DNA of 61,254 bases, counting the filler, from Chloroflexota bacterium (lineage in GTDB: Bacteria; Chloroflexota; Chloroflexia; QHBQ01): assembly GCA_043754535.1 (NCBI GenBank). It is 6 parts of 6 records of this genome, joined end to end, with 100 filler letters (N's around TTAATTAATTAA, not from the genome) between each part and the next. Parts side by side here need not be neighbours in the genome. Positions count along the whole stretch, not along the records: positions 31,664 to 35,405 come from JAYUUN010000075.1; 5 more parts are not named here. One strand, 5' to 3'. Shown piece by piece: positions 11,027-57,661 of this stretch. A program made the translations under genes and the position numbers. How positions within the stretch are numbered: the first letter of the stretch is position 1; every line of letters starts with the position of its first letter. The notes beneath the pieces are model-generated. The model saw only the letters and a program-made list of their open reading frames with translations, was not told the DNA's origin and searched no databases.

Positions 11027-11989
11027 CTAAGGGGTGGGGGTTGGCTGCTGAATGACCAGCAGGTTGGGAGCCTTCATGCCATACTTCTCGACCAGGGTTA
11101 GAGCGTCCACGCCGCTCAATGCACCAGGGGTGCCAGAGAGGACGGGGAAGGTGGCTGTATCCTTGCTGTTCCGCAGGGTAAGGCTCATGCCGCCAGGGCC
11201 GTTCTGGTAGTTGCACTGGCCGCTGGGTTGGCAGGCGAACAGGTCACGCATATACTTGATGATCTCAGCCTGCTCTGGGTTCACGTCCAACAGCAGCAAG
11301 ATAGTTTGCGCTGCGTCAGTAGCGTGGCGGGGGCTGGCTTTCGGGTCAGGCGGCACTGGTAGCTGGATTACGCGCACCACGCGGATCGCTTGCAAGATCG
11401 TCTTGGTGCCTAGCTGCGGCTTGATCAGCGACGGCTGCTGAGCGGTAGTTTGGCCGGGAACGCTGGTTGGGGTCGTTTCCTTCAAGTCGAAGTAGACCGA
11501 AAAGAGGATGTCGACCAGGTCGCCGTCAGTGACCAGTCCACCTACGCCCGTTTCGTCTCCTACAGGCAGGGCGATCAGACGGTGGGTGTTGCTGATCGTC
11601 GGGGTGCTGTTCGGCTCAACGGTGGGGATGAAGCTGCTCATGCCGGGGTCAGTCACCTGATCCTCACGCACAGTTGACCCCTTGTAGAGCGGTACTCGGC
11701 TCATCTTGCCGAAGATGGTGGTCGAACCGGTACCAGCCGCAGTGTTGATGAAGCCCTTGTTCTTGATCTGGTCGCTATCCACCTGTATCTTTGCAAACAG
11801 GTCGGGGGTGAGAATGGTAAACGACGGGATGGTATCAACTGGCTGGTAGACAGTCACCTGGGGGGCAACCTGAACGGTGTTGGTACTGGCGGTATTGGCC
11901 TGGCTGGTCAGGTAAAACACGGCACCGACTACCCCGACTGCGATTAGCAGCAGGACGATGATGCCGATTGGTGATCTACGCTTCCGCAT
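11027..11989 (-). CDS. cpaB: CpaB/RcpC-family Flp pilus assembly protein
   Basis: N-terminal TM, SAF-like segment, GVGGLVTDGDLVDIL, TKTILQAIRVV and LDVNPEQAE; first gene of the tad cluster. Confidence 0.75.
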   Translation of the reverse strand: MRKRRSPIGIIVLLLIAVGVVGAVFYLTSQANTASTNTVQVAPQVTVYQPVDTIPSFTILTPDLFAKIQVDSDQIKNKGFINTAAGTGSTTIFGKMSRVPLYKGSTVREDQVTDPGMSSFIPTVEPNSTPTISNTHRLIALPVGDETGVGGLVTDGDLVDILFSVYFDLKETTPTSVPGQTTAQQPSLIKPQLGTKTILQAIRVVRVIQLPVPPDPKASPRHATDAAQTILLLLDVNPEQAEIIKYMRDLFACQPSGQCNYQNGPGGMSLTLRNSKDTATFPVLSGTPGALSGVDALTLVEKYGMKAPNLLVIQQPTPTP

Positions 11990-19852: not shown

Positions 19853-19952
19853 NNNNNNNNNNNNNNNNNNNNNNNNNNNNNNNNNNNNNNNNNNNNTTAA
19901 TTAATTAANNNNNNNNNNNNNNNNNNNNNNNNNNNNNNNNNNNNNNNNNNNN
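19853..19952. other. Artificial contig-join spacer
   Basis: N44-TTAATTAATTAA-N44 with stops in all six frames. Confidence 0.98.
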
Positions 19953-23139: not shown

Positions 23140-23493
23140 GCTGCTTGCACCTTTCTGTTGCCTCAACCTCAAAGACAGGCGGCTTGCTAGGCGCATTCCA
23201 TTGTCAAAGCCATTATAGCTGGGGAGCCGTCCCCCAGCCGTCGCAGCTGGGAGCGAGCAGCAATAGGCTGGGTCTCTGCTCAAAACCGGGCCGGAAATAC
23301 AGCAGAGAACTGGGTGGCGACTAAGTAGAGGTGCTTTCTGGACGGCTACAAGCGGTGTGGAGACGAAAGGGGTGGTGTGGGTAACAAAAGAGAGGTGCGC
23401 TTTGGAGTGTCGCCGCCCTTTGTGGTAAGATGCAGCAAGCTCAACAGACAAGGCTCATGTAAACCAACAAGGGGACTAACAAGGAGTACGCCA

Positions 23494-26400
23494 ATGCTCG
23501 CTATCCGGCTATTTGGTAGCCCCAGCTGGCGCAGGGACAAGGGCGAGTGGACGATAGTACCGCCGGTTCTGCAACCACTGCTCGGCTATCTGCTGCTGCA
23601 TCGCAACATACCCTTGCCGCGTGACATAGTGGCCGCCGCCCTTTGGCCGGAAGTTCACGACACGGTTGCTCGTGCCAAGCTGCGTCGGGGGCTACACCGC
23701 TTGCGAGCGAGCTTGCCACCGTTGAGCGATCCCGATTGGGTGCTAGCCGACAATACGACGATCCAGTGGCAGCCGCAGGCCGCTTACTGGCTGGACATCG
23801 CTGCCTTTGAGCAAGGCAGTACCAGCCCTGACCAGCTGGCCGAGGCCTGCGACCTCTACCGGGGCGAACTGCTACTCGGTTGCTACGACGACTGGGTGTT
23901 GCATGAGCGCGAACGCTGGCGCAACCTCTACCTGACCAACCTTGAGCTACTGATACGCAAATGCCGGGCTGAGCGAGACTACCCCCGTGCTATTAGCTAT
24001 GCCAGCCGCTTGTTGAGCGTTGAGCCGTTGCATGAAACCGCCGTGCGACTGCTAATGTCGGTACGTTACGAGGCTGGGGACGGGGCAGGGGCGACTGCCG
24101 AGTACCAACGCTTCGTCAGCCGCCTACAGGCCGAGCTTGATACGCCGCCGATGGTGGACACAACGGCCCTCTACGCTGCGATCAGGGCAGGCGCACCCCT
24201 ACCCCAGCCAACCGCCCACCTCAGCCTCAACCCAGAGCGAGCGAGCCAACCCGAATTGCCCTTCGTTGGGCGCACTAGTGAGTTGGCGACGTTGGAGCAG
24301 GCCTGGGTACAGGCAGGTCAGGGACGCGGTAGCCTGGTGCTGGTCAGTGGCGAAGCCGGTATCGGCAAATCGCGGCTGGCGACCGTTGCCAGCCACACGG
24401 CTGAGCGTATGGGTGGGCGAGTGTTGCGTGGACAGAGCGAGATCGGCATCACTGTTCCATATCACACTGTTGTGACCGCCTTGCGCCCGGTCTTGCCGCT
24501 GTTGGCTGCCAGCCATGCCAACCGCACCGAGCTTGAGACGCTCCTGCCGCTGCTGCCCGACCTTGCCCGCTACCGGCCTGACCTCCACCCACCAGCCAGC
24601 CTTGAACCGGCGCAGGAACGTGACCGTCTCTACCGGGCCTTGCGTGCTTGCCTGAGCCAGCTTGCCGCTAGCCGTCCACTCCTGCTGATCATGGAGGACC
24701 TGCACCTGTCCGACGCTGCCACGATTGACTGGCTGCGGTTCCTTAGCGAACGCCTGACGACCTTGCCCCTGCTGGTTGTCATAACCTACCGCGAGGCAGA
24801 GGTAGGCCGTGACCATCCGCTGCGTAACCTGCGGCGCAGTCTGCCGCAAGCAACTGTTCACCACCTGCCGCTGCCCCGGCTGGATGCGGTTGCTGTTGCC
24901 GCCTTGTGTGACAGCCTGCAATTGGCCGAAGCCGGGCTTGAACAGCGTTTCTACCAGGAGAGCGAAGGCAATCCCTTTATCCTCAACGAACTTGTTGCCA
25001 ACCTTGCGGATCATCGCGGGGGGCGTGCAGCCAACCGACCGACAGCCCTGATGATCTCGATGTTGATTGGTGACCGGCTGCACCGCTTGCAGGCTAATAC
25101 CCGGCTGATCGCCGAAGCCGCTGCTGTGGTGGGTAGTAGCTTCAACGTGGAAGTCATGCTGGAATTGACGGGCCGCTCCGAGGCCGAAATACTGGCGGCG
25201 ATTTTTGAGTTGCTTGATGTCAACCTGCTGTACGAAGGGCTGGCGGGCGCGTACAGCTTCAGCCACCATCTGATCCAGTCGGCGATCTATGCCGCCCTCG
25301 ATCCCACTGTGCGGAGCCGCCGCCACCGTCGTCTGGGGCAGGTACTGGCCGAGTTGTACCCTACCGAGGTGGACGCAATGGCGGCAACTTTGGCCCGCCA
25401 TTGCGAACTCGGTGGCGACACAGCATTGGCAATCAGCTACTACCAGCGAGCCGCAGCTTACGCCCGTAGCCTCTATGCCGACGAGGACGCACTGACCGCA
25501 CTCACCGCCGCCCTGAGCCTGACTGAGGAGGGGAGCGCGTGCTTCAACCTGCTGTTGCTACGCGAGGGGATTCTGGATCGGCTGGGGCGGCGGGAGGAGC
25601 AAGCCGCCGTACTAGCCGAACTGCGGCGAATGGTGGGTGAGCCGGGCAACGCAAGGTGGGAGCGCGAACTGCTGCAACGTGAGATCAGCTTCTATCACCT
25701 GACCAATCGGCGTGAAATCGAGGCCACCATCATTAGCCAACTGGAAGCGCAAGCTGGCGACGAACTTCACTGGCAGGCAACGGCTATGCTGGCCCGCGCC
25801 TATTATCATTTCGCCTGCGGCGAACTTCCCCGTGCCAAAGAGTTGAGCGAGGCGGCGGTGGGGCTGTACCAGATGACGGATGATCGGTTGGGAGAGGTGC
25901 AGGCTTACTGCTTGCAGGCTAGTTGTGGGGTTGACATGGGTTATTTTGATGAAGTGCGTCACATCACTGCTAAGGCTTTGCAACGCGCCGGGCCGAACGA
26001 TCAACACCTGCTGGGCGACATCCTGCGGCGGGCGGCTCTTAGTGCCAACCGTCAGTTGCAACATCAAGCTGGTATCCACTTCGGCAAGGAAGCTCTGACC
26101 CTGGCCGAGGCCACCCATGACCTTGTGCTTGAGGCTTATGCTTGTAATGTGCTGGGTAGCCTTAGCCTGAACGCTGGCTACTACGAGGACTGTCTGGCTC
26201 AGTACCAGCGGGCGCGGAGCTTGTTTGCCAACCTCGGTATGCAGCGCGAGGAGGCTTGGGTGCTGGGCAATTTTGCTATGGTGCGCGCCCGACTGGGTCG
26301 CAGCCGTGAAGCATTGGATGCTATACAGCAGGTTGATGCTATTTTCCAGCAGCTAGGCGACATCAACGCGCAAGTGGTGGCGGCAATCAACCTATCTCAC

Positions 26401-27240
26401 ATAGCGAACAACCAACGCTGGGCCAGCGAGGCGCAGGTGGCAGCCCTGCATGGTCTGGCACTAGTAGCGACTACCGGCAGTGCTTTTTACCACGCTACCC
26501 TCCTCTGCAACCTCGGCACGGCTGAACTGGATTTGGGCGATCCAGCAGCGGTTGTCCATCTGGCTGAGGCTGTTGCCCTCTGCCGCCCGCTGCACAACAA
26601 CACCGATTTGGGGGAGATACTGCCCTACCTCACAGCAGCTTACCTTGCTGACAGCCAACTGGAAGCAGCAACGTGGTTGGTGGCCGAGATGTTCGAGCAA
26701 AGTGACTACGAGGTTGATGAGTTCTTTGTTCATTTCCTGGCTGCCTGCGTTGAGCGAGCCGCTGGCAATCGGCTCGTAGTGGCTGCCCATCTAAATCAAG
26801 CCTATGCTGGCTTCCAGCAGAAAGTTAGCTCTGCTAAGGCAGTTTTTGGGGGGATAGCCGATCAGCAATGGCACACCTACTATGAAGGTAAGTTCTTCCA
26901 CTCTGCCATCCTCAACGCTTACGAGCGCGGGGTCTGGCCTGCATGGGCAAAGCTGCCAGAGGGCGTGACCGAGGAGGTGCTACCTGCCTGCCGCTACTGC
27001 CAGCGCAGCACCGCCGTGCAGCGGGCAGGGAGCAATGGCAGTGGCAACCAACGCTATCGTTGTACAGCTTGCCAACGCTACTTCACGGTCGAGCGCAAGG
27101 CACACGGTCACGCTGAGCATCTGCGCCAGCAAGCCCGTATAATGCACCGCGAGGGGAAGGGTATACGCGCCATCGCCCGCGAACTGGCGGTCAGCCACCG
27201 CAGCGTTAGCAACTGGCTCAGAATTGAGACCGAAAGTTAG
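23494..27240 (+). CDS. BTAD/SARP-STAND ATPase-TPR transcriptional regulator with C-terminal IS1 InsA-like Zn-ribbon/HTH
   Basis: ATG 23494 with AAGGAG SD. IRLFG, ALWPE, DLYRGELL, DDWVLHERER and EPLHE (BTAD); FVGR, SGEAGIGKSRL, LIMEDLH, SEGNPF and YSFSHHLI; TPRs; CRYC...QRYRCTAC...GIRAIARELAVSHRSVSNW. Confidence 0.9.
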   Translation: MLAIRLFGSPSWRRDKGEWTIVPPVLQPLLGYLLLHRNIPLPRDIVAAALWPEVHDTVARAKLRRGLHRLRASLPPLSDPDWVLADNTTIQWQPQAAYWLDIAAFEQGSTSPDQLAEACDLYRGELLLGCYDDWVLHERERWRNLYLTNLELLIRKCRAERDYPRAISYASRLLSVEPLHETAVRLLMSVRYEAGDGAGATAEYQRFVSRLQAELDTPPMVDTTALYAAIRAGAPLPQPTAHLSLNPERASQPELPFVGRTSELATLEQAWVQAGQGRGSLVLVSGEAGIGKSRLATVASHTAERMGGRVLRGQSEIGITVPYHTVVTALRPVLPLLAASHANRTELETLLPLLPDLARYRPDLHPPASLEPAQERDRLYRALRACLSQLAASRPLLLIMEDLHLSDAATIDWLRFLSERLTTLPLLVVITYREAEVGRDHPLRNLRRSLPQATVHHLPLPRLDAVAVAALCDSLQLAEAGLEQRFYQESEGNPFILNELVANLADHRGGRAANRPTALMISMLIGDRLHRLQANTRLIAEAAAVVGSSFNVEVMLELTGRSEAEILAAIFELLDVNLLYEGLAGAYSFSHHLIQSAIYAALDPTVRSRRHRRLGQVLAELYPTEVDAMAATLARHCELGGDTALAISYYQRAAAYARSLYADEDALTALTAALSLTEEGSACFNLLLLREGILDRLGRREEQAAVLAELRRMVGEPGNARWERELLQREISFYHLTNRREIEATIISQLEAQAGDELHWQATAMLARAYYHFACGELPRAKELSEAAVGLYQMTDDRLGEVQAYCLQASCGVDMGYFDEVRHITAKALQRAGPNDQHLLGDILRRAALSANRQLQHQAGIHFGKEALTLAEATHDLVLEAYACNVLGSLSLNAGYYEDCLAQYQRARSLFANLGMQREEAWVLGNFAMVRARLGRSREALDAIQQVDAIFQQLGDINAQVVAAINLSHIANNQRWASEAQVAALHGLALVATTGSAFYHATLLCNLGTAELDLGDPAAVVHLAEAVALCRPLHNNTDLGEILPYLTAAYLADSQLEAATWLVAEMFEQSDYEVDEFFVHFLAACVERAAGNRLVVAAHLNQAYAGFQQKVSSAKAVFGGIADQQWHTYYEGKFFHSAILNAYERGVWPAWAKLPEGVTEEVLPACRYCQRSTAVQRAGSNGSGNQRYRCTACQRYFTVERKAHGHAEHLRQQARIMHREGKGIRAIARELAVSHRSVSNWLRIETES

Positions 27241-28400: not shown

Positions 28401-31400
28401 GTGTCAACGCCCGTGCAGCGGTTGGCTAGCCCCTATGTTGACCCCCAACTGCCCAGCCTGATCCTCAACAGCAAGGTTGCGCCTGACCTTATCGGGGTTG
28501 GTGAGACCTTCACGGTCACGGTAGTCATCTTCAACCAGGCCCGCTACAACGCCAGCAACACGGTAGTCACAATGGCCGTACCAAGCGGCACCCTATCCTT
28601 GCCCACGACGCAGCAGACCATCACCTGGCGGCCAGGGCTAATCGCAGGCGGCAGTGCCATCACCCTGACCGCCAGCTTGCGCCTGGTATCTGGCACGCTG
28701 GACGCTGTGCTGTTCCGGCCCAGCGTGCTGGCTGATGGCCTGACCACGCCGCTGGTGGCTCAAGCGGGCGCACTAGTCGAGAACCGCACGATGCAGCCAG
28801 CTACCGCCGCCTTCATCCCTGGGCGGGCCGCTATGCTGCGCAGCGTCGATCAGCACCTCAGCGTAGCTCTGCCCGCTGGGGTCTCCAACCGTAACCTCAA
28901 CCTGCGCCACACCTATACCACTGGCACCGTAGGCTTGGCTAACTCCCGACGTGGCTTGGGCGGCTTCTCCCTGGATGCCACTAATGACCAGGGGCAGCCA
29001 GTCCACCAGTTCAGTCAGCCTGTAACGATCACCTACCACTACTCGCTAACCCAGCTTGACGCGCTCGGCATTCTACCTGACGACCTGACCCTCTACTGGC
29101 ACGAGCCGCAGAGTGGGCAGTGGCAGGCAATCCCCACGACCGTAGATCAGGCTGCTGGTACTGCAACGGCGCAAGTGAATCACTTCAGCAACTTTAGCTT
29201 CGGTGATAATTCGACAGTCTCAACCGACTTCATCCCCAGCCTGCAAAGCTGGCAGACCAACCTTTACACTGGAGCGGCTAGCTATTCCTACCCCATCGAG
29301 GTACCAGCGGGGCCAACAGGGATCAAGCCTGACCTTGCCCTGAGCTACAACAGCTCCGCGACCGATGGTAAAGGTGGGCAGCGGCAGCAGTTGCAATCTA
29401 ACTGGGTGGGACGCGGCTGGAGTCTGGATACTGGCTCCGTCAACCTGAACATCCAGCACCAGGAAGGTGGCAATGCAGTCGGCTACTACAGCCTGGCCTT
29501 CAACGGACGCTCCTTTGATGTGGTGCGGGGTGCTTGTATTACGGCTGGTGACTGCAACAATACCGATGTTACCAAGTGGTACTGGACTAGTACCGACGAG
29601 TCCTTCGTCAAGGTGCGGGTGGTCAACAATGGGCTATCTTACCCGGGTAGAGGTGGAAGCTACTTTGTGCCTCCTGGTTCTGGAGACACCGTTTTCATCA
29701 ACCGGACTAAGTGGCAGGTGTGGGCGAAAGATGGTACCTACTTTGAGTTCGCTGAGGATCTCTGGTGGGGCTGGGACTGCTCAGTTGGTAGCAGCATTTC
29801 CGATGACTTCCTGCAGACTTACAAGTGGAATCTGTCCCTGGTGCGCGACACCCACGGCAATGGCATCACATACCAATACGGGCGTAAGACGGAACCAGTA
29901 TCAACCCCTGTTGGCTGCAACCGCATCGCTAGTGGTACGGTGGACAATGATAGCTGGCCCTCAAGCGTAACTTGGGGTGGCAACACCAACGCTGGTAATA
30001 GCGACCGTTACCGGGTCGTCTTCGACTCCACTGATCGTACCCTCGACCAGTTCAACGAGCATGCGTCAGGTGTCCTCGGCAGAGGCACGCGCCAGAGTCA
30101 GCAGCTTAACGATGTTCGGGTAGAGAGCTACGTCAACACTTCCTGGCAGCTCATGCATCAGTACAACCTTAGCTATACGAGCGAGTTGTTCTCCGATGCA
30201 AGCAAGGGTACCTGTATCGACCCTAACAACTGCGACCCCCGCAACATCAATGATTATTACTATGCCCCCTTCATCGACACCGCCAAGTTGACCCTCAAGC
30301 AGATCGAGCGCACCGACAAGAATGCTGGGATTGGCCTTGGTGTTCCTAGCTACTCTCTGCCGCCAATGGTTTTCGCCTACAATTCTGGCACCGTGGCGCG
30401 TGGCACTGGCTACTACCCTAACCCCGGCTGGAATCGCTTGCAGAGTACCAGCAATGGCTACGGTGGCACCGTTAGCTTTATCTATGAGAACATCGGCAAA
30501 GTAGTCTCAGATACTATTGGCACTAACAACGGTGATGCCAGGAAGTTCCGCAACAACCTGCGGATTCAGTACCAGAGCCTGAACGATGGCATGACTGGCA
30601 TCGTCAACGATGGCGCGGCCCACGTCTATACCACCACCTATAGCTACAGCAATCCCGCCTACAATACGTCATCAGACCCACTAGCTGGTGGTTATCCCAA
30701 CTCAGACCGCCTGCTACTCAGCAGCAAGTTTGGCCTGTCAGACTACCTGGTTAGGCCAGAGAACACCGAGTTCCGTGGTCACAGCAAGGTAGTGATGACC
30801 GACACGCGCGGCTACCAGAGCGAACACTACTTCTACCAGGGTAACGCTGGTTGTAGCCCAGCAGTAATCACCAATACGCTGCCGACCACGGATGCCTGCT
30901 TCATCGAGATGCGGCGGCAGGAGTTCAACCTGGGCCGCGAGTACCACACGATCACGCGTGGTGCAAACGCGGCCAGCAACCCGCTAAGCGAGTCCTACAG
31001 CGACTACGCCCTCGCCTTCTACGATTATGGCGGCTACCATCTCGAACTGGGTAGCGACTACATCACCGGCACCAGCGGACTGTGGCACGGCTTCAGCTAC
31101 ATGACGCAGACGCGGGAGATCACCTATGACCCCGCTAACCCCGCCGCCTACCGCAGCAAGAAGACGCAGTACGACTATGCCACTGCCCTCAACCAGTATG
31201 GCAATATGACCGAGATGCGTGAGTACGATGCCAAACCCGGTGGCGACGAGCTGCTGCGGAAAGTCAGTTATGCCTACGCCAGCCGAGACGACTTCGCCAG
31301 CAACCCCACTGCCGCAACTGGCACCTACATCGTTGACCGCCGTACCCAGGAGTTTATCCGCGGTGGGCAGGGGAACTACCTGGCGGGCAGCCTCTATGCC

Positions 31401-31563
31401 TACGATGGTGACCTCTACAACCTGGGTACGAAGGGCGAGTTGAGCAAGGTCTTCAAGTTTGCTAACCTGAGCGGCACTGCTATCAACCCTGCTACTTACA
31501 CTGGCACCGACAGCAGCTTCGCCTACGACACCTTCGGCAATATGGTGCGTACCACTAGCTACA
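28401..31563 (+). CDS. RHS/YD-repeat protein with DUF11-like, Ig/ZU5-like and SpvB/TcdB-N-like regions (3' truncated)
   Basis: KVAPDLIGVGETFTVTV; VNHFSNF; TGAASYSYPIEVPAG..IKPDLALSYNS; VGRGWSL; WNLSLVRDTHGNGITYQY; EFRGH; YDTFGN. Confidence 0.8.
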
Positions 31564-31663
31564 NNNNNNNNNNNNNNNNNNNNNNNNNNNNNNNNNNNNN
31601 NNNNNNNTTAATTAATTAANNNNNNNNNNNNNNNNNNNNNNNNNNNNNNNNNNNNNNNNNNNN
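31564..31663. other. Artificial contig-join spacer
   Basis: N44-TTAATTAATTAA-N44. Confidence 0.98.
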
Positions 31664-32041
31664 CCGCGCCAGATGGAGCGCGTTCCGGCGGGCGCACGCT
31701 TCCGCTTCAATATTGCCTATAGCGTGCTAACGCGAGCGGATGCTGACAACTTCATCGTCGTGCTGGAAGGCTTGCGCCTGCTCGAAGATGACTATCTTGG
31801 CGGCCTCGGTTCGCGTGGTTCGGGGCAGGTGGCGTTCACCAACCTACGGCTTAACTGGCGTTCACGTAAGTTCTACGAGGGTGTTGTGGTGGAGAATGAC
31901 ATTGTTGAGGCGCAGAAGCTCTGGCCGCCTGCTGACACCAACCTAAAGCGTAAGCTACCGCGCCTCTCTGACTTGACTAGTGAGCGTTTGAGCAAGGTAG
32001 TTGCATACATTAACGATCAGATCAAGGCCGAACACCCATGA
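31664..32041 (+). CDS. csm3: Type III-A CRISPR RAMP Csm3, C-terminal part
   Basis: PRQMERVPAGARF...GLRLLEDDYLGGLGSRGSGQVAF Gly-rich loop; ATGA overlap with csm4. Confidence 0.9.
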   Translation, partial: PRQMERVPAGARFRFNIAYSVLTRADADNFIVVLEGLRLLEDDYLGGLGSRGSGQVAFTNLRLNWRSRKFYEGVVVENDIVEAQKLWPPADTNLKRKLPRLSDLTSERLSKVVAYINDQIKAEHP

Positions 32042-33309
32042 CCCTGCAACTGGTACGCCTCAAGCTACAAACCCCCTTCCACGTCGGTGAGCGTGGCGTT
32101 GGCCTCGAAGGGGCGACGGCTGCTATTCAGGCTGACACGCTGTTCGGCGCGATCTGCCATGCCTGGCGGCGGCTGTTCGGCCTGCACGACAGCAAGTATG
32201 GGATAGGCCTACAAAACTGGCTGAACAGTTTCCCCCGACTGATGATGGGTAAGGAGGCCGTGGAAGGGGGCGAGTCGGCCAACTATTTCGAAGGTGAGGG
32301 CGCGCCACCGCTGTGTCTCAGTTCGCTGTTCCCCTATGTGCGGCTGGTGGATGGCAGCAGCGTCTACACCCTGCCACTGCCGCTCGGCTTCGACTATGAG
32401 GGCGATGTCAAGAAGCTGAAGAAGATAGCCTGTGCCAGCTTTAGCCAGTTCCGACCGGCTGCGGCTAGCTGGCCGTTGCTCAACGTCAGCGACCCTGCCA
32501 CGATCCAGGATGGTACAATCTGGTTGAGTGCGGAGGAGCGCAGTAATCTGCCGCCCAGCACGAGCGAGGCCGAGCAACTGGGCGGCAACCAGCGCAGCCT
32601 CCCGCTCTGGCAGCTTGACAAGCAAGAGGTGCGGCGGTCGCTCTACGATAATATGGCAGTGCCGCACGTGACGATTGACCGCCAGACCACTGCCCCGGCT
32701 CTTTATCATGTCGGTAGTGTGCGCTATGCCGAGCAGACCGGCCTTTACTTCATCGCCGAGGTGATGGATGACACGCTAGTGCAGTTCCAGCAAGCGGTGC
32801 GGTTGGTAGGCGACACCGGGCTGGGCGGCAGGCGCACGTCGGGGCATGGGCTGTTCACGCCGACCTTCTTTGGGGCGGAGGGCAAAGCTGATCGTGGCCG
32901 TCGCCCTAAACCAACTGATCCCGTTGTTGTCGAGCAAGATGGCAACGCTGCGCTGCTGCTGAAGCTAGTTGAGGCGGGGCAGCGTGGTGACGGCGGTCGC
33001 TGGCTCAACCTCGGCTTGGTTGCGCCGCGCAGTGCGATGGAGCTTGGCGACTTGCTGAAGGACATAACTACTGACCGGCCACCGGCCTACCGGCTGCTGC
33101 AACGACGCGGCTGGGTGGACTCGGATAGCGGCGAGATGAGCGTGCTGCGTAGCCGGGCGGTGACGCTGTTCAGCCCCGGCTCGGTACTGGCTAGCCGACC
33201 GCAGGGCGCGTTGGTCGAGGTCACGCCGCAAGGGGCAGAGGGGAAGGCTGGCTCTCACCCTGTTTATCGGTTTGGTTGTGGGTTGAGTGTGAGCCTTAAT
33301 TTGCCTTAA
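32038..33309 (+). CDS. csm4: Type III-A CRISPR RAMP Csm4 (Cas5 group)
   Basis: FHVGERG, ADTLFGAI, LSSLFPY, PHVTIDR, GLYF, GDTGLGGRRTSGHGLF, RRGWV, PGSV and HPVYRFG. Confidence 0.9.
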   Translation: MTLQLVRLKLQTPFHVGERGVGLEGATAAIQADTLFGAICHAWRRLFGLHDSKYGIGLQNWLNSFPRLMMGKEAVEGGESANYFEGEGAPPLCLSSLFPYVRLVDGSSVYTLPLPLGFDYEGDVKKLKKIACASFSQFRPAAASWPLLNVSDPATIQDGTIWLSAEERSNLPPSTSEAEQLGGNQRSLPLWQLDKQEVRRSLYDNMAVPHVTIDRQTTAPALYHVGSVRYAEQTGLYFIAEVMDDTLVQFQQAVRLVGDTGLGGRRTSGHGLFTPTFFGAEGKADRGRRPKPTDPVVVEQDGNAALLLKLVEAGQRGDGGRWLNLGLVAPRSAMELGDLLKDITTDRPPAYRLLQRRGWVDSDSGEMSVLRSRAVTLFSPGSVLASRPQGALVEVTPQGAEGKAGSHPVYRFGCGLSVSLNLP

Positions 33310-33320
33310 GGAGAAGCGCA

Positions 33321-34064
33321 ATGAACGAGCAAGACTACTTCGAGGAAGACGCAGACGACGACTCATACGACCCAGAGGACTTTCAATGTCCTTTCTGCGC
33401 TTCTTTTGGTATGCCTATTGGGTTGGCTCTAACTGGTCAGACTGATGGGAGTGCTGCTCCCTACGGTCTTAGTATTCTTCAGTGTCCCAGATCAAAGAAA
33501 TGCGGTAAAATATCCATCTGGGAGGGCTACAAGGTATTGTACCCACCAACAGGTGGACACCCCTTTGCGGAGCGTAGTATGCCGAAATCCGTCAAGAAAT
33601 ATTATGAAGAAGCACGTAGGGTGGCTACTGCATCTCCACGTGCTGCTGCGGCACTTCTTAGACTAGCTATGGAGGAGTTGTTTAGGTACTTTGCTGGGCT
33701 AGAACGTTACAGACAATGTGAACTACACTCTGAAGGTGTGGGTACCTTGAAACATAACATCAGCCAAATGAGCCGTCACGGACATATTGATGAAGAAACT
33801 CGGAAGAAGCTAGACTACGTTAAGCTTACTGGTGACTACGGAGTGCATGGTATGCCGATAGTCTTTTTGGAGGATAACGAATCTACAACTCATCTACTGT
33901 TCAGGCAGGTTAATAAGATTGTAAGGAAATTGATTGCAGAGCCACAAGAAGAAGAAGCAAGCGAGCGTAAAGTTCAAAGTCTACAGCGTGCAGTTAATAC
34001 AGCCGCCAAGCAAGCAGAGCAAAGCTCTAACTTGGTAGAGGATGTGAACAATGACAACAACTAA
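33321..34064 (+). CDS. DUF4145 (HEPN-superfamily) protein with N-terminal Zn ribbon
   Basis: FQCPFC...CPRSKKCGKISIW...LYP...MP..VKKYYEEA...SPRAAAALLRLAMEEL...LDYVKLTGDYGVH...LFRQVNKI. AAGGAG SD overlaps the csm4 stop. Confidence 0.82.
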   Translation: MNEQDYFEEDADDDSYDPEDFQCPFCASFGMPIGLALTGQTDGSAAPYGLSILQCPRSKKCGKISIWEGYKVLYPPTGGHPFAERSMPKSVKKYYEEARRVATASPRAAAALLRLAMEELFRYFAGLERYRQCELHSEGVGTLKHNISQMSRHGHIDEETRKKLDYVKLTGDYGVHGMPIVFLEDNESTTHLLFRQVNKIVRKLIAEPQEEEASERKVQSLQRAVNTAAKQAEQSSNLVEDVNNDNN

Positions 34065-35405
34065 CTACCGGCTTGAAATCCTGACCCCCACCCATGTCGG
34101 CAGTGGCGACAGCTATATGTGGCTGGACTACGTGTATGAGGGCGGCAAGCTGTATGTGCTGGATATTGGCCGGGTTAGTCAGGCACTTACCCGCAGCGGG
34201 GTGATCAGCGTCGGCGAGCTGGTCGAGTGGATGAAGGACGCTACCTTTAGCTGGAACCGGCTATTGCAGCAGGCCGGGGTTGCAGCGGCTAGCGTGGCCG
34301 ACTACGCCATTCCAGCAGCAGGCGACCCGGCAGTTGATAGCACGGGTAGGCGGGGGCAGCGTGGCGGTGAGGTGCGGGTCATTGCCCGTAACGCTAACCG
34401 CCAGCCTTACATACCGGGGAGCAGCATCAAGGGGGCAATCCGTTCGGCGGTGGTAGCGCGGCTGTTGCCGGGGGTAAGCAACAACGAGCTTGGCGGCAAG
34501 GTTGGCCGAGGTCGCAAGGAGTTCGCTGCTGGGCAGCTTGAGCAAACGCTGCTGGGTAGAGACCCTAACCACGACCTGTTCCGCGCCTTGCAGGTTAGCG
34601 ACAGCGACCCCTTTGCGCTGGATGATGTACGAGTGGTCGAGGTTAGGCGGGGACGCAACTTCGATGGCACAGGCGGGATGTTGACCTTTGTCGAGGTGCT
34701 GCGGGCAGGGGCGGCGACGGTGGTCAAGCTGCGGGTGGATGATGGCTTGTTGGAGGCGCACTTCCGCACGCTGGGTTGGAGCAGCCAGCAGGTAGCTATC
34801 CTGCGCGACGAACTGGCAGCGGCCTGTCGGGAGTTCAGCGCGACGGTGGTGCAGGAGCAGCGCAAGTTTTACCGCCCAAACTGGCAGGAGAGTGAGGACG
34901 CGGCCAGCTTCAGTCTGCTGCTGGGCTGGGGTGGTGGCTGGGCGGGCAAGGCTCCAATAGGTGTACGGCTGAAGGGGCAGATGCCGGACTTCTTCGAGCA
35001 GACGGCCAACTATTTGCAGATGGGCAAGCGCGAGGTGGTGATTAGCGCGGACACCTTCCCGACCAGCCATTGGATGGCGCGGGAGGGCAGTCAGGAGTTG
35101 CCACTGGGCTGGGTGCGGCTGACCCCAACCGATGCGGTGGTAGCTTTGCCGCGCTTGCAGCCGGTGCAGGTGAGAAATGTCGAAGTCAAGCTACTGCCGC
35201 GTGCGGTAGTGCAGCAGTCGTTGCCGCCGCGTGGCGACCGCCGCGACGCTCCTGTTCGCAGCAACCAGTTTGTGCCAGCCGAGCGACCACAACGCCAGGG
35301 CGGAGCGCAACGCATCACGAGCGAGGCTGAGATTGTGCGCGGGCGGCTGGTGGTTGGCACGGTGGTTGAGGTCAAGCCAAACATGGTACGGGTCGAACTC
35401 TACCC
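34051..35405 (+). CDS. csm5: Type III-A CRISPR RAMP Csm5 with probable C-terminal S1-like domain (3' truncated)
   Basis: LEILTPTHVGSG, PYIPGSSIKGAIRSA, DPNHDLFRALQVSDS, LGWGGGW, FP and PLGWV; tail GRLVVGTVVEVKPNMVRVEL. Confidence 0.88.
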
Positions 35406-35505
35406 NNNNNNNNNNNNNNNNNNNNNNNNNNNNNNNNNNNNNNNNNNNNTTAATTAATTAANNNNNNNNNNNNNNNNNNNNNNNNNNNNNNNNNNNNNNN
35501 NNNNN
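35406..35505. other. Artificial contig-join spacer
   Basis: N44-TTAATTAATTAA-N44. Confidence 0.98.
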
Positions 35506-46547: not shown

Positions 46548-46647
46548 NNNNNNNNNNNNNNNNNNNNNNNNNNNNNNNNNNNNNNNNNNNNTTAATTAAT
46601 TAANNNNNNNNNNNNNNNNNNNNNNNNNNNNNNNNNNNNNNNNNNNN
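46548..46647. other. Artificial contig-join spacer
   Basis: N44-TTAATTAATTAA-N44. Confidence 0.98.
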
Positions 46648-57561: not shown

Positions 57562-57661
57562 NNNNNNNNNNNNNNNNNNNNNNNNNNNNNNNNNNNNNNN
57601 NNNNNTTAATTAATTAANNNNNNNNNNNNNNNNNNNNNNNNNNNNNNNNNNNNNNNNNNNN
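57562..57661. other. Artificial contig-join spacer
   Basis: N44-TTAATTAATTAA-N44. Confidence 0.98.

Follow-up and report, generated by a model that had tools for sequence, protein, structure and literature searches.

The known accessory nucleases of type III CRISPR systems are linked to the complex via cyclic-oligoadenylate sensors. What, then, is a gene of another family doing between two core subunit genes of such a system? The question is raised by a 61,254-nucleotide (nt) stretch of DNA (the window, along which all positions are given) from a Chloroflexota bacterium (GenBank assembly GCA_043754535.1), where a gene encoding a 247-amino-acid (aa) protein lies between csm4 and csm5. A first-pass annotation, made from the sequence alone, had described the product as a DUF4145 protein, and proposed that it was a CARF-less ancillary effector, a regulator or a complex-associated subunit recruited into the Csm operon.

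Our principal result is that this protein, hereafter P0001, is a divergent member of the RAZR (PD-T7-4) family, that it occupies a slot which is conserved in a sister species (G001, the sole congeneric species in the genome collection) with its content exchanged, and that the csm-embedded forms of the family have specifically lost the catalytic Arg while retaining the fold. The swappable slot, the Arg loss and a cas context absent from stand-alone relatives are new here; already known were the family as a stand-alone abortive-infection RNase, and RAZR relatives or HEPN genes in restriction-modification (R-M) and BREX loci. A member of a protein-sensing innate-immunity family between core type III subunit genes is unexpected for the RAZR and the type III fields alike.

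A divergent RAZR relative between csm4 and csm5

The gene lies where the first-pass annotation had placed it, between neighbours recognized by TIGR01903 and Csm4_C on one side and by TIGR01899 on the other. Of the span first proposed (33310..34064), the end stands; position 33310 falls in the Shine-Dalgarno region, and the ATG is at 33321. The wiring to both neighbours is also as described. The Shine-Dalgarno sequence overlaps the csm4 stop (TAA, 33307-33309), the csm5 start lies in the last 14 nt of the gene (ATGACAACAACTAA, 34051-34064), and a GAGG at 34038-34041 lies within the gene, 9 nt upstream of the csm5 start. On the contig that carries the gene (C75), no promoter-like site and no plus-strand terminator-like site were found, which is weak evidence. 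Translation as part of the csm operon is the best explanation of this arrangement.

The gene differs from its surroundings in composition. Its G+C content is 0.461 for a genome mean of 0.614 (z -4.8), a value that is reached or undercut in 9 of 10,209 genome windows of 744 nt, and its G+C at third codon positions is 0.43 compared to 0.73-0.74 for csm4 and csm5. In windows of 400 nt, the G+C content is 0.44-0.47 within the gene and 0.60-0.66 in the flanks. Horizontal acquisition would best explain such a foreign composition. A search for flanking repeats or recombination sites between 33100 and 34300 returned no inverted repeats and only short direct matches. An integron-type gene cassette was rejected, the attC-like imperfect inverted repeat being absent and the overlap of the 3' end with the csm5 start leaving no room for one.

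RAZR (PD-T7-4) is described as a ring-activated zinc-finger RNase, in which one gene makes up the whole abortive-infection system: ring-shaped phage proteins (portal, Gp77) are bound by the zinc-finger domain, the protein then forms a 24-mer, and its DUF4145 HEPN domain cleaves single-stranded RNA (Zhang et al., Nature 2026, PMC13017515). The same paper reports that R146A and H154A each abolish defence, that higher-order oligomers are required, and that variability is highest in the zinc-finger domain, which determines phage specificity (PMC13017515).

Several comparisons place P0001 in this family. Pfam recognizes DUF4145 (E 5.7e-9, residues 96-178), the one domain also reported by Protein Atlas, while the PADLOC model of PD-T7-4 (PDLC04109) matches P0001 with E 8.1e-30 (positions 9-190 of 211) and the sister allele with E 1.7e-43. 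The RAZR chain of PDB entry 9y9c is matched with E 1e-12 by P0001, with E 4.1e-24 by the sister allele, and with E 3.1e-78 by a profile of 24 relatives. The AlphaFold2 model of P0001 has a mean predicted local distance difference test score (pLDDT) of 79.5, with most of the HEPN part above 90, and Foldseek, a check recommended in the first-pass annotation, returns 9y9c_OA as top match (probability 1.00), so that the C-terminal DUF4145/HEPN fold of RAZR is present. In bit scores against the PD-T7-4 model, the two csm-embedded alleles reach 102 and 147, compared to 243-288 for three stand-alone members. No CARF or SAVED domain is among the Pfam or NCBIfam matches of P0001. The absence of CARF had been noticed at first pass as a peculiarity; it is expected for this family, because RAZR's own zinc-finger domain senses phage ring proteins and no cyclic-oligoadenylate sensor is needed.

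The other features read at first pass are all there, namely an acidic N-terminal tail and the Cys motifs CPFC (residues 23-26) and CPRSKKC (residues 55-61). Among the zinc ligands, C23, C26 and C61 align with invariant Cys residues, and the fourth is shifted to C55; S58 sits where 162 of 166 family sequences have the Cys of a second CxxC knuckle. The G001 allele has both CxxC knuckles. Both csm-embedded alleles keep SPRAA..LLR, the three aligned Cys, a Gly and the His. The C-terminal Y..LP motif of the family is absent from both, and each is modelled with a single uninterrupted C-terminal helix of about 58 residues. The columns of the RAZR oligomer interface (D179, D180 and R184) vary across the family and are uninformative.

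The active site is another place where the csm-embedded forms depart from the family. Of the catalytic pair of RAZR, H154 is kept in P0001 as H176 and R146 is replaced by K168, the Asn that the family has between them being Asp; the sister allele has Gln at the Arg position and, in addition, Lys in place of D165. Among 166 family sequences (163 loci and the three csm-embedded ones), this column holds Arg in 161, Lys in two, Gln in one and His in one, with one gap. In 176 proteins from an exhaustive search, a set that overlaps the former and is not independent of it, the counts are 173 Arg, two Lys and one Gln, and all 173 other relatives carry Arg. The Lys, Lys and Gln carriers are precisely the csm-embedded proteins: P0001, its 97% variant P0002 and the sister-species allele P0029. 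Because the catalytic Arg is replaced, we file P0001 as a divergent homologue rather than a canonical ring-activated RNase. Of what was first proposed, the domains, the wiring, the lack of CARF and the foreign composition stand, and the role of an effector RNase is doubtful, since the Arg that RAZR requires is Lys or Gln here.

A conserved slot with exchanged content

In G001, csm4, a RAZR-like gene and csm5 follow each other on one contig (C244), which answers the first-pass suggestion to look elsewhere for DUF4145 between csm4 and csm5. The design is the same: the RAZR-like gene is equally AT-rich, its most likely start is an ATG 8 nt before the csm4 stop and downstream of a GGAGG, and its junction with csm5 is the identical ATGACAACAACTAA overlap. 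Both proteins end in DNN, a C-terminus that is fixed because of this overlap. The contents of the slot are very different. Csm4 is 76-77% identical between the two species by genome search (76% by MAFFT) and Csm5 81% (75% by MAFFT), compared to 28% (BLASTP, E 1e-15) or 33% (MAFFT) for the RAZR-like proteins.

The synonymous sites are consistent with different histories of flanks and cassette. In the flanking genes, synonymous divergence (dS) is 0.67-0.82 and nonsynonymous divergence (dN) 0.18; in the cassette, the proportion of synonymous differences (pS) is 0.75, which is saturated, and dN is 0.80. At identical residues, the same codon is used at 141 of 230 positions in csm4 (0.61), 224 of 322 in csm5 (0.70) and 29 of 68 in the cassette (0.43), where 0.37 +/- 0.06 is expected at saturation. 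Because the synonymous sites of the cassette are saturated and those of the flanks are not, the alleles are older than the split of the flanks, and therefore recombinational replacement or separate capture has to be invoked rather than vertical divergence. The protein is still constrained, since the proportion of nonsynonymous differences (pN, 0.49) is below pS. In a tree of 164 family members, both csm-embedded forms are on very long branches. Holding the three csm-embedded rows together improved the log-likelihood by 45.9 units over the free quick tree and was not rejected (approximately unbiased test, p 0.84), which is compatible with their common descent.

Contigs from metagenomes also speak for exchange. 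In contigs of four runs from four studies, the match to csm4 extends to 33287 and the match to csm5 resumes from 34049, 34051 or 34064 onwards, which delimits an exchangeable cassette comprising the last seven csm4 codons and the RAZR-like gene up to the csm5 start. One contig of run X1 carries explicitly 748 unlike letters between 33287 and csm5, and arithmetic on the record lengths of X6 and X8 agrees with this number. In the 30-letter loose ends of X6 and X8, csm4 ends three codons further on, with a GAGG overlapping the stop, the same design as in C75. The size and layout of this alternative filling, of about 748 nt, suggest that it is RAZR-like as well. The slot is thus conserved across species and its content exchanged.

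How widespread is this arrangement? Of 401 sampled genomes of the phylum, Csm5 scores above the cut-off in 39 and PD-T7-4 is matched in 17, and the two are found on one contig in the source genome alone, that is, in 0 of the 38 other csm5-bearing genomes. Five csm4-matching genomes at a greater distance (four without G012) have no RAZR-like ORF near csm4; there, the csm4-sized ORF is directly followed, or overlapped, by an ORF of 379-411 aa, which the csm5 model confirms in G052 only. When 1.84 billion representative proteins were searched exhaustively with a profile, 2,808 family members were obtained; among the best 150 of them, a third relative close to the csm-embedded forms is missing (511, 323 and then 135 bits), a bound below which a further allele of about 30% identity could rank. 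A word-based search with the sister allele returned itself and two distant proteins only, and a single-protein scan of genome contigs returned no relative, whereas alignment-based scans did find relatives. No match was found in 50,697 phage records, and the source genome (89% complete) has a single DUF4145 match. As far as searched, the csm-embedded arrangement is confined to one isolated, uncultured Csm lineage. Full-text searches of the literature did not find it either; supplementary tables of surveys of type III accessory genes were outside their coverage.

To characterize the usual surroundings of the family, we considered 163 loci from genome and metagenome collections and, within 1.5 kb, no more than one neighbour per side. 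Cas and RAMP Pfam families are absent from all 287 immediate neighbours, and phmmer with Cas10 and Csm2-5 against all ORFs of these loci, a test of low sensitivity, gave no match. Family loci usually lie among other defence or mobile genes. R-M contexts comprise hsdM-RAZR-hsdS (L046, L052 and L067), mod-RAZR-res (L011) and other methylases (L047 and L069), and these R-M-embedded relatives retain the catalytic Arg; other contexts include GmrSD, TIR, STAND, HNH and toxin-antitoxin genes, integrases and prophage baseplate genes. The hsdM/hsdS-embedded loci come from three genomes of the candidate phyla radiation, the others lying between mod and res or beside large N6/N4 methylases. One Jeongeupia chromosome has three copies of a RAZR relative (L030-L032), each beside a phage-spike-like gene and probably in repeated prophage or tailocin regions, and two Pseudomonas loci (L033 and L062) have two RAZR paralogues in tandem.

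Possible roles of the embedded protein

We favour the following reading of the locus. A horizontally acquired RAZR relative would have been placed as an exchangeable cassette in a fixed csm4-csm5 slot, where it would add innate phage defence as a second layer, one that accompanies the Csm system and acts separately from it. Its hypervariable zinc-ribbon domain would recognize a phage protein, by analogy with the ring-forming portal and recombinase proteins that activate RAZR, and alleles would be swapped by recombination through the conserved csm4 and csm5 flanks, each recognizing different phages. Since no csm-embedded allele retains the catalytic Arg, the canonical RNase burst of RAZR is probably not the output. 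The nuclease may be weakened or lost and the protein may coat or sequester its phage target, a mode of action that we find somewhat more plausible than a residual, Lys-assisted RNase. Relatives inside other defence operons, such as hsdM-RAZR-hsdS and mod-RAZR-res, offer a precedent for separate action. To a cassette of this kind, co-expressed with the Csm genes and mechanistically separate, sensing phage proteins with an altered or weakened output, we assign a probability of about one half. If it is correct, Csm operons would serve as carriers of swappable innate sensors, like R-M and BREX loci.

Several points weigh against this reading. Independence from the Csm complex is an assumption that we infer, like the phage-protein ligand and the output, and the csm-exclusive loss of Arg argues that the context changed the function, which fits a Csm-linked role at least as well. 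The second zinc knuckle of P0001 is atypical (Cx5C), and zinc binding by this allele is a prediction. As for the exchange, the alternative cassette was seen through its 30-letter loose ends, from which its RAZR-like nature is judged; the metagenome joints were called at 90% likeness with sides of 41-75 letters, and may stem from sister strains or species. The saturation test relies on 68 codons in an alignment that is uncertain at about 30% identity, and the clade test is open to long-branch attraction between the two long branches.

The best-surviving alternative is that the nuclease-impaired RAZR scaffold docks on Csm5 or Csm4 as a subunit, adaptor or regulator, and links phage-protein sensing to Cas10 or tunes the complex. 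The translational coupling to both neighbours, repeated in G001, the conservation of the slot in two species, the restriction of the Arg loss to csm-embedded forms, and the long modelled C-terminal helix without its LP break in both alleles speak for it. So do features of the host system: Csm4, with 423 aa for a profile of 304 positions, and Csm5, with 503 aa for one of 364, both exceed the length of their family models, and Cas10 retains the GGDD cyclase motif, read in its sequence, with no HD-domain match returned by family searches for its first ~170 residues. In the 89%-complete genome, Csx1_HEPN (PF09455) and Card1 (PF09002) have no match, controls being positive for both and many CARF families not having been tried; Csm6 (TIGR02672) and SAVED (PF18145) also gave no genome match, but the controls for these two were silent as well. 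On the other hand, a single interface would have to survive between alleles sharing about 30% of their residues and flanks sharing 75-81%, no conserved surface is seen beyond the family-wide motifs, the gene is missing from the 38 other csm5-bearing genomes of the phylum and from the five distant csm4 loci, and the RAZR relatives within R-M operons are not known as R-M subunits. We consider a role within the complex possible, at odds well short of even. Were the protein to act with Csm, it would be the first link of protein-pattern sensing to an RNA-guided effector.

A more elaborate form of this idea, which we hold to be unlikely, is that a nuclease-impaired RAZR descendant was domesticated as an exchangeable pattern-recognition subunit of type III-A Csm. 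Its hypervariable zinc ribbon would bind a structural or recombination ring of the phage, and its HEPN domain and long helix would dock on Csm, for example on the extended Csm5, so that sensing infection at the protein level would license, localize or boost an RNA-guided effector whose Cas10 lacks a recognizable HD domain. If this were true, the allele polymorphism of the slot would represent a repertoire of sensors, shaped by an arms race, that all feed into the same adaptive machine. Either way, whether acting alone or with Csm, these proteins are natural Arg-less variants with which the RAZR scaffold may be probed without its RNase.

It is also conceivable that the gene is a mere passenger, a defence or selfish gene decaying in a permissive spot, its catalytic site broken and its contribution to the host nil. 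The foreign composition, the degraded motif (Arg to Lys or Gln in both alleles, Asn to Asp in P0001, D165 to Lys in G001), the low PD-T7-4 scores and the very long tree branches would agree with this. However, the reading frames are intact in P0001, P0002 and P0029, pN is below pS, the zinc ligands, SPRAA..LLR, the Gly and the His persist, the folds of both alleles are predicted with confidence, and the Shine-Dalgarno and start/stop coupling are preserved in two species; moreover, the metagenome contigs show the slot refilled, not emptied. A passenger thus appears improbable, and the first-pass view that the gene was recruited rather than caught by chance gains from the homologue that G001 keeps in the same slot.

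An anti-defence or interfering element seems very improbable, for instance a RAZR decoy without catalytic activity by which canonical RAZR oligomers would be poisoned or the Csm operon dampened. A dead subunit of an obligate oligomer could be dominant negative, given the reported need of RAZR for higher-order oligomers (PMC13017515), but the 89%-complete genome yielded neither a canonical RAZR nor any further DUF4145 gene, the 50,697 phage records yielded no match, and insertion in the same orientation, with a coupling that keeps csm5 translated, does not look disruptive.

Finally, an assembly chimera, in which a low-GC segment was wrongly joined to csm flanks, might be suspected of a 3.7-kb contig in a fragmented, metagenome-derived assembly of 132 contigs, and is refuted, as is the misassembly against which the first-pass annotation had advised a check of the junctions, by the gene order of G001 in a different species' assembly and by contigs of two studies that bridge both junctions (X1, possibly the source sample, 970 nt, 33156-34125, no differences; X5, 912 nt, 33208-34119, 13 differences), an X6 contig also spanning the 5' junction.

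The host operon and comparison with known systems

The window consists of six contigs (part of C71, then C74, C75, C77, C79 and C80) chained via N44-TTAATTAATTAA-N44 linkers, and because it is made of joined contigs, gene neighbourhoods across linkers are not real. The assembly totals 3.87 Mb in its 132 contigs and is 88.9% complete. C75 (window 31664-35405, 3,742 bp) starts within csm3 and ends within csm5; on its left, C74 has a 1072-aa ORF that is not Cas10 by Pfam and NCBIfam searches, and on its right, C77 has a DUF4397 gene. ORFs that run into linkers (28401-31619 and 34051-35457) acquire artificial stops, the apparent csm5 stop at 35457 being linker. Positions of all features are collected in Table 1.

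Table 1. Features of the RAZR-like locus and linkers of the window
Feature	Position	Strand	Basis or remark
csm3, 3' part, truncated by contig start	31664..32041	+	TIGR02582 profile positions 146-203, E 2.2e-18
csm4, 423 aa	32038..33309	+	TIGR01903 E 2.8e-44; Csm4_C E 9.9e-15
Exchangeable cassette, last 7 csm4 codons and RAZR-like gene up to csm5 start	33288..34050	+	Metagenome contig joints
Shine-Dalgarno AAGGAG, overlapping csm4 stop, 7 nt 5' of ATG	33308..33313	+	Read from sequence
RAZR/PD-T7-4-like gene (P0001), 247 aa, ATG start	33321..34064	+	PADLOC PD-T7-4, PDB 9y9c, Foldseek
Acidic N-terminal tail, 11 D/E in first 21 residues	33321..33383	+	Predicted disordered; pLDDT <50 for residues 1-16
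Zinc-ribbon domain, residues 21-75	33381..33545	+	C23 and C26 canonical; second knuckle C55-x5-C61
HEPN (DUF4145) domain, residues 85-210	33573..33950	+	
Degenerate catalytic motif K168-x7-H176 (RAZR: R146-x7-H154), D172 at family Asn	33822..33848	+	Alignments
C-terminal extension, ending in DNN	33951..34061	+	Modelled within one long helix (187-245)
csm5, 5' 451 codons, truncated by contig end	34051..35405	+	TIGR01899 E 7.6e-28
Contig linkers N44-TTAATTAATTAA-N44	19853-19952, 31564-31663, 35406-35505, 46548-46647, 57562-57661		

The remainder of the operon lies on the minus strand of contig C46 (4,653 bp), which carries in order the end of a cytochrome-P450-like gene (named from a motif, not from a family search), cas10, csm2 and the 5' part of csm3. 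Cas10 (P0178) matches TIGR02578 with E 6.8e-104 from profile position 94 onwards, as well as palm2 and Csm1_B, Csm2 matches PF03750, and the csm3 part covers TIGR02582 profile positions 2-90 (E 5.8e-26). The ends of C46 and C75 do not overlap, and about 55 csm3 profile positions are unassembled; the two csm3 halves suggest that both contigs form one csm operon. Across them, the type III-A set of cas10 with GGDD, csm2, csm3, csm4 and csm5 is present. CRISPR-like arrays were found with a crude repeat script on C27, C31, C50 and C112, and shorter three-copy matches elsewhere, including C43.

The length of Csm5 is known from a full-length relative, P0179, which is 98% identical. Close relatives of Csm5 are two in number (98% and 82%), the next being at most 37% identical. 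In this lineage, the protein exceeds the profile by about 140 aa, with a Pro-rich linker followed by a weak match to the S1 RNA-binding domain (PF00575, E 0.0079, below the cut-off; P0179 residues 431-486, that is, window ~35341-35405 and beyond the contig end), and may be a Csm5-S1 fusion. Strain variation in the Csm locus is not limited to the RAZR-like cassette: contigs of X6 and X8 have 146 other letters in place of the final ~176 nt of csm3 (window 31861-32036), and in an X8 contig a csm4 patch (32883-32935) has many small deletions. In G001, the two ORFs 3' of csm5 (C244, L184:3036-4236) are without Pfam match, and their relatives in the source genome sit on other contigs (C90 near 33960-34424, 74% identical; C104 at 11239-11919, 58%), so that the genes following csm5 may be arranged differently in the two species. 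Elsewhere in the window, an ORF of 1287 aa (23377-27240) encodes a BTAD/SARP-type activator domain together with an AAA_16 ATPase and TPR repeats; over its last ~80 residues it matches the zinc-ribbon/helix-turn-helix N-terminus of IS1 InsA-type transposases (NF033558 E 4e-15, residues 1205-1282), and this part would be either a fusion or an IS1 remnant read through.

Compared to known systems, P0001 is closest to RAZR, with which it shares an N-terminal Cys4 zinc ribbon, a conserved linker, and a DUF4145 HEPN domain with the His and the SPRAAAALLR helix. In both, the zinc-ribbon region is the most variable part (PMC13017515). It differs in having Lys in place of R146 (Gln in the sister allele), a Cx5C second knuckle, an acidic N-terminal tail and, like the sister allele, one long modelled C-terminal helix instead of the helix-LP-helix of the family. 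Against the family model it scores about 40% of what typical members reach, and its gene is embedded in a csm operon and translationally coupled to csm4 and csm5, whereas RAZR is a stand-alone single gene.

The differences from Csm6 and Csx1 are deeper. P0001 has no detected CARF or other nucleotide sensor and a zinc-ribbon sensor instead; its motif is K-x7-H and not Rx4-6H, it belongs to another HEPN family (DUF4145), and its gene lies between core subunit genes, not at the edge of the operon.

More instructive parallels come from other immune operons, HEPN genes having been reported embedded in R-M and BREX loci (PMC3710099, PMC3506569, PMC10799925). BxaP, a BREX-associated protein proposed to add an abortive-infection layer (Nat Commun 2024, PMC10799925), is likewise a DUF4145 HEPN-like protein that is genetically attached to another immune system; by its published description, it has a C-terminal HEAT-like region and no zinc ribbon, and its partner is BREX, not CRISPR (PMC10799925). 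In PrrC, of the EcoprrI type Ic R-M locus, the classical embedded suicide RNase is found, an anticodon nuclease unrelated to RAZR that is held in check by its R-M partner (PMC3506569). The R-M-embedded RAZR genes share with PrrC and with the csm-embedded gene the placing of a toxin-type RNase gene between genes of an immune operon; they differ from the csm-embedded forms in that they keep the catalytic Arg and that their host operon is R-M and not CRISPR.

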